From Planctomycetota bacterium (lineage in GTDB: Bacteria > Planctomycetota > UBA1135 > UBA2386): a DNA stretch of 64,000 bases. Shown here in pieces: positions 54,001-57,000 of this stretch. Numbering within the stretch: position 1 is the first letter of the stretch; the number at the start of each line of letters is the position of its first letter. A program made the position numbers. Where the stretch lies: assembly GCA_045105235.1 (NCBI GenBank), contig JBGCDH010000011.1, forward strand, positions 141,992 to 205,991. The letters run 5' to 3'.

Positions 54001-57000
54001 ACGCCGAGAACGCATGCCGATGCGCACCACATGCGGATTCTGATCACACTAGGCATCGTGCTAGCCCTCGCGATTGCTGGCGTCATTGGCTTCGTGGTGC
54101 AGCGCGAATCGTCACGCGACAGCGCCGGGTCCAACCAGAGCCTCAATCAGTCGACGGGCATGCCTGTCGCCACGATCTCCGAAGGGGAACGCGTCAATGT
54201 CGATGCCAACGTGCCGACATCCGGCCATACGGTCGTCATGTTTAGCGCCGACTGGTGACCAAGCTGCAAGCCCACGCGGTCTCAGTTGGAGGCCGTCGCA
54301 AACTCGCGCCCGAACATCTTCCTGCGCATCGTCGACATCTCGACGCGCGGCTCCGAAGCGGGTGCGCAACACGGCATCCGCGCCGTGCCGACGCTGTGGC
54401 TCTATAGCGATGGCAAGAAGGTCGCCGGCAGCACAAAGGAAACGTTCACCGTGCTGAACGAAATGCGCAACGGCGGCTAGGAGATACGCGGAACGCGTCG
54501 ATGCCAGGCCTGATGGACAACCGCCACGACGAGACCCCCGCGCCTGCGCGCCGCGGCGGCAACCTCGGCACGTTCGATCCGTCGCGCCGGCAAAACGCCG
54601 AGCCAAACGAACAGACCGTTGGCGCCCACCGCGGATCGCCGCTGGGCTACGCCCCAAGTCCGTCGCCGAATCGGTGGCGCTACCTGCTCGGCGGTCTGGT
54701 GGCGGCGTGGCTGTTTGGCTTCATCCTGCCGCGAAACTTCACGTGGTTTCTGTCGGCCATTCCACACGAGATGGGCCACGCCACGTTCGGGTGCCTGCTT
54801 GGCCATCCTTCGTCACCCAACATCAGCTTGTCGGGCCACGCCTGGACCGGCATCGGCGTGCTGCGTCCCTGGCTTGCGTGGACCATCGCCGCAGCGTTTG
54901 GCCTATTCGCCATCGGCATGGTACGGCGGCCGCTGACGTGCGCGGCGCTGGCCGCAACCGCCGTGCTGATTCCGCTGTGTGCATTCACCGGGGTCTCGCA
55001 GATCTTGATCGCGGTCGGCGGACATGTCGGCGAACTGGCCTTTGCAACCTGGTGCTTCACGCTGGCCTGGACCGGCGGACAAACCGATAGCGCACAAGAA
55101 CGGGTCGGCTCCGCCATGGCTGGCGCCCTCGTGCAGTTCGTCAACCTCAAGCTCTGCTTCGGCCTGCTAACCAGTGCCGCCGCGCGCAATCACTATGCGG
55201 GCAACGGCAGCTTGGGCCTCAAGAACGACTACTTGATCCTCGCGGAAGACCTGCTCGGCTGGCGTCTCGGATCGGTTGCGATGGTGATGTTCATCGCGGC
55301 GCTGCTACCGCTACCGCTCGGCGTGCTGCTCGGCATGTGGCGCCAGCGCGTCGCCGACTGAGGCCCAGCGCACGCCGCCAACAGGCCTCGAACAGGCGAT
55401 AGATTTCGCGAATGGTCCGTAACGAGGCGGACAGGAAATCGCCGTGATCTGCAGATCTGCGTCTCCCCCGCGCCGATCTTCGCCGCTCACGGCCACCCCT
55501 TCTTTAGATGCTCCACACGACCACCCATCGATTCGCCGTCCCCACTTTCGCCACTGCGCTCATCCTGCAAGCCGTCATGGGCCAGACCGACGCTCCAGGA
55601 GCCGTGCAGCTGCAAAGCCGCGCAGCCGCAGCGTTCACGAGCAACTCGCCGAGCGGCAACGTCGAGATCTCCGGCAACGGGCGCTTTGTTGCGTTTGCCA
55701 GCCGCGCCAACAACCTGGTGCCGGGCGACACCAATGGCCGCACCGACATCTTCGTGCGCGACCGCCTGACCGGCTCGATCGAACGCGTCAACGTCTCCAA
55801 CAGCGGCGTGCAAGCCAACGACCATTGTTACTACCCGTCGATCAGCGACGACGGAAACCGCGTTGCGTTCTATGGCTTTGCGACCAACATCGTGCCGGGC
55901 AACGCGACCCTCGATACGGTCTTCGTTCGCGATCGCGCTGCCGGCACGACGTTCCGCATCAACGGCATCGGTGGCTTCCCTGCCAACAACAAATGCGTCA
56001 CACCGCGGATCAGCGGCGACGGCAACTACGTCACGTTCGAGACCACCGCGACCAACTTCGTTGCTGGCGATACGCCTAACACCGACTGCATGCTGGTGGA
56101 GATCGACACCGGCGCGATCTTCGCCGCGAGCCACGCAGCCAACGGCAGCGTCGGCAACGGGTTTAGCTTCTCGCCGGCGGTCTCGCGCGACGGTCGCTAC
56201 GTCTGCTTCCACGGCACATCGAGCAATCTCGTTGCCGGCGACACCAACGGCGCGCGCGACGTCTTTCGATTTGATCGCATCACAGGGCAAACCATCCGCT
56301 GCAGCGTCAGCTCGGCTGGCGTGCAGGGGAACGGCCGTTCGTGGCGTTCGAGCATCAACGCGGACGGCCGCTACGTCGCGTTCAACAGCGCCGCCAACGT
56401 GCTCGTGCCCAACGACACCAACGGCACGTTCGACATCTTTGTGCACGACACCACGACCGGCTCGACCGAACGCGTATCGGTCGCATCCAACGGCGGCGAA
56501 GCCACCGGATTCAACTCTTCGCAGTGCTTTCCAAACGTCTCCGAAGATGGGCGCTACGTGACGTTCTTGTCGGATCTGAGCGGCATGGTCGCCGGCACCG
56601 GACCGGGCTTTCACTTTTACCGCCACGACCGCACCACCAATACCACCTTGCTGGTGGACACCGACGCAGCCGGAGTCGGCGGATCGCAAGGCGTCCAGGC
56701 GGCCTACAGCGATGGCGTCTTCTCGCATAACGAACGCGCCACGCAGTCCGCCGACGGCCAGGTCGTTGCGTTTACGAGCCGCTCGATCAACCTGTTCGGC
56801 GGCAACACCTTGCTCGACCGGGTCTACGCCAAAGACCTCGGCATCGCAGCGACCAGCCCTGGTCCCGCGATGGTCGGCGGCAGCGCCGTCACGGATCTTG
56901 CGGCCGCAAGCTACGCCGGTGCGTTCTACGTCGGGGCATTTGCTCTGGGCTACCAGGGCGGCGTCATGCTGCCGGGCGACTGGCGCCTGCCGCTAGATGA

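Follow-up and report, generated by a model that had tools for sequence, protein, structure and literature searches.

Does the TGA at positions 54256-54258 of a stretch of planctomycete DNA end a gene, or is it read as selenocysteine (Sec)? The stretch, referred to here as the window, is 64,000 nucleotides (nt) in length and corresponds to positions 141,992 to 205,991 of contig JBGCDH010000011.1 (GenBank assembly GCA_045105235.1, Planctomycetota bacterium). Two of its open reading frames (ORFs), 54031..54258 and 54286..54480, share one frame on the forward strand. An earlier note on this DNA had proposed that these are the two parts of a membrane-anchored, thioredoxin (Trx)-fold selenoprotein, in which the TGA stands at the codon of the attacking Cys and is followed by a hairpin resembling a bacterial Sec insertion sequence (SECIS). 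This proposal is supported by the orthologues of the gene, by Cys/Sec homologue pairs and by the hairpin: it is highly probable that 54031-54480 is one gene for a predicted membrane-tethered thioredoxin-domain selenoprotein, with U76 as the nucleophile of a W-U-P-S-C motif.

The gene (54031..54480, + strand) is complete. Translation gives 149 codons, beginning with ATG and terminating with TAG (54478-54480), and the TGA at 54256-54258 is the sole internal stop. The context of this codon is ...GHTVVMFSADW-[TGA]-PSCKPTRSQLEAV..., such that the motif W-[TGA]-P-S-C has the TGA in place of the first Cys of the thioredoxin W-C-x-x-C motif. The predicted Sec residue, U76 (54256..54258, + strand), is therefore at the attacking position, and the resolving Cys of the UxxC motif, Cys79, is encoded by a TGC (54265..54267, + strand) that is invariant in all Sec and Cys forms. 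Coding signal is present on both sides of the TGA: the G+C content at third codon positions (GC3) is 0.76 upstream and 0.85 downstream of it, and the codon log-odds per codon is +0.18 before and +0.48 after, with negative values in all other frames. When the whole 64 kb was surveyed for TGAs that lie in frame with coding signal both before and after them, only this codon and an ordinary gene junction (actD/actE) were found. Database entries for the gene consist of two fragments, P0121 (75 amino acids) and P0122 (64 amino acids). Genome-wide reassignment of UGA was considered and rejected, as TGA is the commonest stop codon in the window, ending approximately 25 of its 47 gene-like ORFs.

Homologues of the read-through protein were collected with an exhaustive HMMER search, using a query with X at the stop. 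The matches included the window's own two fragments as well as short proteins from other samples (P0133, P0148, P0177, P0191, and P0232; 39–53% identity) whose matches cover residues 1-75 and which terminate at precisely this point. Two other proteins, P0171 and P0247, start just past the point of the TGA. Full-length homologues containing ...F-T-A-x-W-C-P-x-C... were also recovered (P0127, P0129, P0134, P0135, and P0136), and in the protein alignment each of these has Cys at the Sec position. The orthologue set was assembled from the DNA of the truncated matches and from a scan of species-representative genomes using five Sec forms. It contains 12 distinct TGA sequences, namely the window, L021, L022, L024, L028, L035, L029, L033, L034, L036, L037, and L038 (L031 is a near-identical variant of L022). 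Those orthologues that were aligned over their full length are 37–50% identical to the window protein. Eight of them are from metagenome-assembled genomes (MAGs), seven of which are titled Planctomycetota or simply "bacterium" and one Brocadiaceae.

The homologous codon is TGA in all 12 distinct sequences. It is followed in each by x-x-Cys (PSC, GGC, PAC, GAC, PPC, NAC, or PGC) and, past this, by approximately 70 in-frame codons without a stop or frameshift that lead to a common C-terminus. As the earlier note had observed for the window protein, the landmarks of the Trx fold continue after the TGA, including the helix that follows the motif and the cis-Pro; in the orthologues they appear as LR-x-VDI, S-x-VA-x-QY, and LPTLWLY-x-DG. 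Residues C79, R99, D102, Q113, and P120 downstream of the TGA are invariant in the alignment. Among the species-representative genomes, 8/8 redox-active family members carry TGA, and TGC occupies the Sec codon in the Cys-form homologues L100 and L101. After the TGA, codon positions 1/2/3 differ pairwise by 0.41/0.30/0.49, compared with 0.35/0.26/0.43 before it; the order (2<1<3) is the same on both sides.

These comparisons bear directly on the possibility of a pseudogene or a sequence error, in which a Cys codon (TGC or TGT) has been mutated or misread as TGA. A single-base change from TGC would be enough, the window is from a MAG, and gene callers give two ORFs at this locus. The same TGA nevertheless recurs in 11 further sequences that come from different samples, were put together with different assemblers, and are both independent and divergent; their identities to the window protein rule out a single contaminating source. 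In addition, frameshifts and extra stops are absent from the downstream codons of every orthologue, both the coding-type substitution pattern and the GC3 persist past the TGA, and a co-varying hairpin (described below) is specific to the TGA forms. The probability of this explanation is negligible, and we exclude it because the same TGA recurs in a dozen divergent lineages.

The searches also returned proteins that are related but different in form. In L039 (5001-5390) and the proteins P0131, P0150, and P0173, which are paralogues or homologues within this family, neither redox residue is retained (FLSSSMEGS, for example, replaces FTADW-U-xxC); these proteins keep the TM anchor and the remaining fold and are presumably redox-inactive. 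P0123, P0124, P0128, and P0140, which are among the best HMMER matches, are 800–1400 residues in length and contain 5–14 tandem Trx-domain-like stretches. No match was obtained in a word-indexed protein search with the read-through protein or when the window's own ORFs were looked up as exact proteins, and a pattern scan of metagenomes returned only distant Cys-type thioredoxins and no members of this family. A later profile search was dominated by generic full-length Trx-family proteins, making it unusable for counting Sec fragments.

The SECIS-like hairpin is located within the coding sequence (CDS) at 54276..54296 (+ strand), with the stem and loop positioned as the earlier note had described. 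The stem arms are CGGUCUC (54277-54283) and GAGGCCG (54289-54295), with an extra G-U pair at 54276/54296. The loop (AGUUG, 54284-54288) is 5 nt in length, has G-U at positions 2-3, and is closed by a C-G pair. The spacing from the UGA is 18 nt to the stem and 25 nt to the loop (the loop starts 26 nt past the A of UGA). The latter distance is within the range of the bSECISearch consensus (16–37 nt). The geometry of the hairpin fits published descriptions of bacterial SECIS elements.

Conservation of the hairpin was assessed in an ungapped alignment of 13 sequences covering the TGA with 12 nt on its 5' side and 60 nt on its 3' side. The sequence CAGTTGG is invariant at columns 40-46 in all 13. 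Standard pairs are formed in 90.1% of the cells of the 7-bp stem, and 4/7 stem pairs show compensatory two-sided changes: the outer pair is C-G, G-C, or A-U, and changes from G-C to U-A and from U-A to G-C are also observed. None of 500 column shuffles reached any of the observed pairing measures, and pairing falls to 34–62% if the 3' arm is slid by 1–3 columns. With RNAalifold, the same helix is obtained independently, extended by one G-U pair, and a local hairpin folds in each Sec form (-7 to -18.5 kcal/mol). Neither the motif nor an in-register hairpin is present in the TGC forms or in the Cys-less paralogue. The hairpin is thus conserved and co-varying in TGA orthologues and missing from TGC forms, a result in line with the role that the earlier note had assigned to it.

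The amino acids encoded by the loop follow the same distribution. In Sec forms, the residues overlapping the loop are always Q-L (CAG-TTG, within Q-L-E), whereas the residues at this position in Cys forms vary (KLE, RLE, HLR, QIE, and HVE). TTG is a rare Leu codon in this high-G+C genome. Variation at third codon positions is 0.23 in the hairpin codons and 0.49 elsewhere, showing constraint inside the hairpin only. Because the loop residues are fixed as Q-L in Sec forms and third-position diversity drops in the hairpin, selection appears to act at the RNA level. No further candidates were identified when the window and the flanks were searched for other C-AGUUG-G hairpins and for additional in-frame TGAs with coding signal.

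The TTG in the loop is also the point at which gene callers begin the spurious C-terminal fragment P0122 (54286-54480). Could the locus then encode two products? Translation would stop at the TGA to give a 75-residue membrane peptide, the downstream part would be translated from the in-frame TTG or not at all, and the hairpin would be a regulatory, re-initiation, or attenuation element instead of a SECIS. All orthologues share the TTG (codon +10) and no other in-frame start-type codon past the TGA, TGA is the usual stop of this genome, and Sec insertion in bacteria is known to compete with termination (PMC4513850). A protein started at the TTG would, however, drop the invariant x-x-Cys and half of the Trx fold, and no Shine-Dalgarno-like sequence is found upstream of this codon, which itself lies within the hairpin loop. 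The downstream frame is always the same as that of the upstream ORF, the Cys homologues are single continuous proteins, and substitution over the nine codons that separate the TGA from the TTG is of the coding type, with the Cys conserved. We consider two separate products to be very unlikely, and a single Sec-containing product remains the favoured interpretation.

Several results weigh against this interpretation. In single-sequence folding of 54250-54320, the minimum free energy (MFE) is no better than that of shuffled sequences (z=0.23; the sequence is 65% G+C); the significance of the hairpin comes only from the comparison of orthologues. No Rfam family reaches its gathering score in the window, and only chance-level unrelated matches are obtained for 54150-54400 at E<=10. 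The NG86 dN/dS after the TGA has a median of 0.53, which is only moderately less than 1, and the sequences are saturated; because this ratio is weakly informative under saturation, we used the codon-position statistics given above in its place. Finally, we were unable to identify selA, selB, selC, or selD in the 64-kb window or in approximately 130 kb of related loci, and tRNA-Sec was likewise not found in the window or in the 15 loci searched for it.

The results for the Sec-decoding genes are relevant to another alternative, in which the UGA is recoded to a residue other than Sec, either by SelB/SECIS-dependent insertion of Cys or by near-cognate read-through with Trp or Cys. Literature on "facile recoding of selenocysteine" reportedly describes bacteria in which Cys is inserted via a Cys-charged tRNA-Sec-like tRNA. 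The comparative evidence points to read-through and a SelB-type hairpin and cannot identify the inserted amino acid, and neither selA nor selD was seen within the window and related loci. Such systems are rare exceptions, however; the UGA occupies the place of the nucleophilic Cys in a redox motif, a typical position for Sec, and an enzyme with Trp in its active site would be inactive. Moreover, complete selA/B/C/D sets have been reported in some Planctomycetes, and two Sec candidates described as "thiol-disulfide isomerase-like thioredoxin", each annotated as two genes, are listed for planctomycete P1 (PMC4807772, S9 Table). Insertion of a different residue is accordingly rated as improbable, to about the same degree as the two-product explanation, and Sec is preferred.

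Bacterial selenoproteins have been predicted on the basis of Cys/Sec homologue pairs and of a stem-loop after the TGA that has a small apical loop with a G (PMC1088965). At this locus, we found a Cys/Sec pair, a UGA that is conserved together with the downstream frame, and a stem-loop with a G-containing loop. Under the proposed mechanism, the UGA at 54256-54258 would not be read as a stop during translation; the hairpin at 54277-54295, 18 nt past it, would act as a bacterial SECIS, and insertion of Sec would presumably be SelB-dependent. The predicted product would have an N-terminal transmembrane (TM) helix, a flexible linker of approximately 20 residues, and a classical thioredoxin fold, and, located at the membrane surface, may serve as a thiol/selenol-disulfide oxidoreductase. 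In such a reaction, the U76 selenolate would attack a substrate disulfide (or sulfenate), and Cys79 would resolve the mixed selenenylsulfide.

This architecture is apparent in both sequence and model. After M-R, residues 3-23 (ILITLGIVLALAIAGVIGFVV; 54037..54099, + strand) are predicted to form a TM or signal-anchor segment: all 21 residues are uncharged, with a mean Kyte-Doolittle value of 2.9, and a TM segment is present in all 11 orthologues tabulated. The N-terminal anchor proposed in the earlier note is thus borne out by hydrophobicity and by a modelled helix. Residues 24-45 (54100..54165, + strand) comprise a low-complexity linker rich in Ser, Gly, and Asn, which varies in length and sequence among orthologues and is gapped and poorly aligned. 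The Trx-fold domain extends over residues 46-149 (54166..54477, + strand) and includes Pro120 of A-V-P-T (54388..54390, + strand), which is the conserved cis-Pro position of the fold and an invariant column in two alignments. In a Pfam scan of the product with Cys substituted for the stop, this domain matches Thioredoxin (PF00085) at 44.1 bits (cutoff 23.5, E=2e-11), with a weak secondary match to Thioredoxin_2 (PF13098) at 30.1 bits.

An AlphaFold2 (AF2) model from a 24-sequence alignment has a mean pLDDT of 84. It predicts a helix at residues 3-26, an unstructured region at 27-45 (pLDDT about 50; 47–55 over the linker, residues 24-45), and a Trx fold at 46-149 (pLDDT 88–96) with the secondary-structure order beta-alpha-beta-alpha-beta-beta-alpha. 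In the model, strand 66-72 and helix 79-92 are joined by a loop that contains position 76, and this loop is the canonical location of CxxC. The best Foldseek matches are to E. coli TrxA (probability 1.00) and the Trx domains of ERp46, with a target TM-score of about 0.62–0.66, and a PDB sequence search likewise gives Trx and PDI matches.

Assignment to a narrower family was less successful. The window protein scores 35.9 bits and other family members 40–60 bits with TIGR01068, and the protein is therefore not a canonical thioredoxin (36–60 bits overall vs. an equivalog cutoff of 96.8). The TrxA/TrxC models NF006898 and NF008229 give 24–48 bits against cutoffs of 125–138, and the DsbE, TlpA, ResA, and StoA models give 18–35 bits against cutoffs of 123–230, so that none of these families is matched. 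None of the selenoprotein-specific NCBIfam models (NF04xxxx; for example, SaoT, HUIPC-motif Trx-like, VPGUxxT, and GOS_C) is above threshold. Only sub-threshold scores were obtained for the DsbD-like part of TsoB (approximately 20 bits vs. 805) and for TIGR02187 (17–18 bits vs. 185).

On which side of the membrane the Trx domain would lie is less clear. The earlier note had considered it likely to face the periplasm, but this orientation is not established. All orthologues start with M-(R/K) followed by a hydrophobic segment of 18–22 residues; there is one Lys or Arg before the TM segment, and the 15 residues after it contain 0–4 (mostly 2–4), with a net charge between -2 and +4. Because these flanking charges are ambiguous, the positive-inside rule is indecisive between a periplasmic signal-anchored protein and a cytoplasmic tethered one.

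The genomic surroundings do not point to a partner for the protein. The gene at 54031-54480 is preceded on its own strand by pyrF (50651-51538), bshC (51493-53109), and bshB (53106-53840); it is followed by a 286-residue ORF without a Pfam or NCBIfam match (54501-55361), a gene for a PD40-repeat protein, and one for a ParA-like ATPase. The proximity to bacillithiol genes, to which the earlier note had drawn attention, holds for this locus, where bshC and bshB are immediately upstream, but it is not conserved at any orthologous locus. The three closest relatives with long contigs (L001-L003, BshB identity 70–73%) keep pyrF-bshC-bshB and have neither a downstream Trx gene nor a tblastn trace of one. 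A link to the bacillithiol genes was consequently dropped, given that the adjacency occurs at no orthologous locus and the bshB loci of relatives have no Trx gene. Neighbourhoods differ at every orthologous locus (an FAD oxidoreductase, a PRC-barrel protein, a dioxygenase, and DUF7452 are among the neighbours), and for this reason no partner can be inferred. The interval from bshB to the ParA-like gene (53841-57217) contains the selenoprotein gene, the 286-residue ORF, and the PD40-repeat gene. Because L001-L003 lack or replace these three genes, the interval is a variable spot in an otherwise syntenic region.

Other parts of the window encode recognizable systems. A respiratory cluster at 12825-26280 (+ strand) begins with genes for a multihaem cytochrome c, a large molybdopterin-binding/4Fe-4S protein, an NrfD-like protein, ActD, and cytochrome c subunits, this first part being of the alternative complex III (ACIII) type; it continues with SCO1/SenC and subunits II, I, III, and IV of an aa3-type cytochrome oxidase. 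The combination of an ACIII-type complex and an aa3-type oxidase shows the organism to be aerobic. A Pel-type exopolysaccharide locus at 30475-44385 (- strand) includes PelG (30475-31833), a PelF-like glycosyltransferase (31835-33445), a GAF-domain protein (34557-37400), and a TPR protein (37394-41053); a GH114 glycoside hydrolase is encoded at 43375-44385 (+ strand). The presence of dnaA (61876-63570, + strand) and a ParA/MinD-like ATPase gene (57337-58323, + strand) near the end of the window suggests that the chromosomal origin could be nearby; the cumulative GC skew does not turn anywhere in the 64 kb. At 8536-11081 (- strand), genes for a carbamoyltransferase (9249-11081), an SxtJ-like protein (8771-9196), and a DUF5989 protein (8536-8763) form a trio reminiscent of the accessory genes of saxitoxin-type clusters, with no other such gene nearby.

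With respect to its significance, the finding is biologically incremental: it is an annotation correction with a very clean SECIS rather than a conceptual surprise. The gene is mis-annotated in all 12 sequences, for which databases list one or two meaningless fragments instead of a redox protein of 140–150 residues, and no curated NCBIfam model covers the family. The clean, co-varying SECIS of a family with both Sec and Cys members could be used to train bacterial SECIS models. The prediction also implies a Sec-decoding trait in the source planctomycete, with its ACIII and aa3 oxidase, and in at least eight other Planctomycetota MAGs. We raise only tentatively, and with more doubt than conviction, the suggestion that these proteins make up an undescribed selenoprotein family, so far almost exclusively Planctomycetota-labelled, that combines a classical Trx tethered to the cytoplasmic membrane with the Sec form as the rule and an invariant C-AGUUG-G SECIS loop. 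In that case, and if the domain is periplasmic, aerobic bacteria would have an extracytoplasmic, membrane-anchored seleno-thioredoxin, which might participate in the maturation or repair of respiratory or envelope proteins.

How does the predicted protein compare with known systems? Among predicted bacterial selenoproteins, UxxC proteins with a Trx fold form the most frequent class (PMC13188914 Table 1; PMC1088965), one that includes Trx, Grx, thiol:disulfide interchange, redoxin, DsbA/DsbG-like, SaoT, and HUIPC-motif Trx-like proteins (PMC13188914 Table 1). The window protein resembles the Sec-containing Trx of this class (PF00085, UxxC; PMC13188914 Table 1, PMC1088965) in having the same domain, with Sec at the first position of W-C-x-x-C and a SECIS-type hairpin inside the CDS just past the UGA. 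Cys homologues coexist with the Sec forms, and the nearest structures are classical thioredoxins. It differs from canonical thioredoxin in its N-terminal TM helix and disordered linker, in scoring below the TIGR01068 cutoff, and in having P-S, G-A, or P-A, not G-P, between U and C. Unlike Sec-containing Trx, it belongs to its own Planctomycetota-labelled family with its own invariant SECIS loop.

A Trx fold and UxxC are also shared with the thiol:disulfide interchange, isomerase-like, redoxin, and DsbA-/DsbG-like groups (PF13098, cd02966, PF08534; PMC13188914 Table 1). These UxxC groups and the P1 candidates often have an N-terminal signal or anchor, are predicted by the same kind of comparison, and are usually called as two genes. 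The P1 candidates are given by IMG identifiers only, with no SECIS detected there (PMC4807772). In contrast to TlpA/ResA-type proteins, the window protein has a compact classical Trx fold without the TlpA/ResA insertions, and its DsbE, TlpA, ResA, and StoA scores are far below the cutoffs.

The hairpin resembles the E. coli fdhF-type SECIS in its location within approximately 20 nt 3' of the UGA, inside the ORF, and in its small apical loop with G then U. It differs from the fdhF element in its unrelated sequence, in the family-invariant 5-nt AGUUG loop closed by C-G, and in the lack of an obvious bulged U, and SelB binding is putative. Taken on its sequence features, the gene at 54031-54480 would encode a further UxxC Trx-fold selenoprotein, possibly a new subfamily, of a well-known class.

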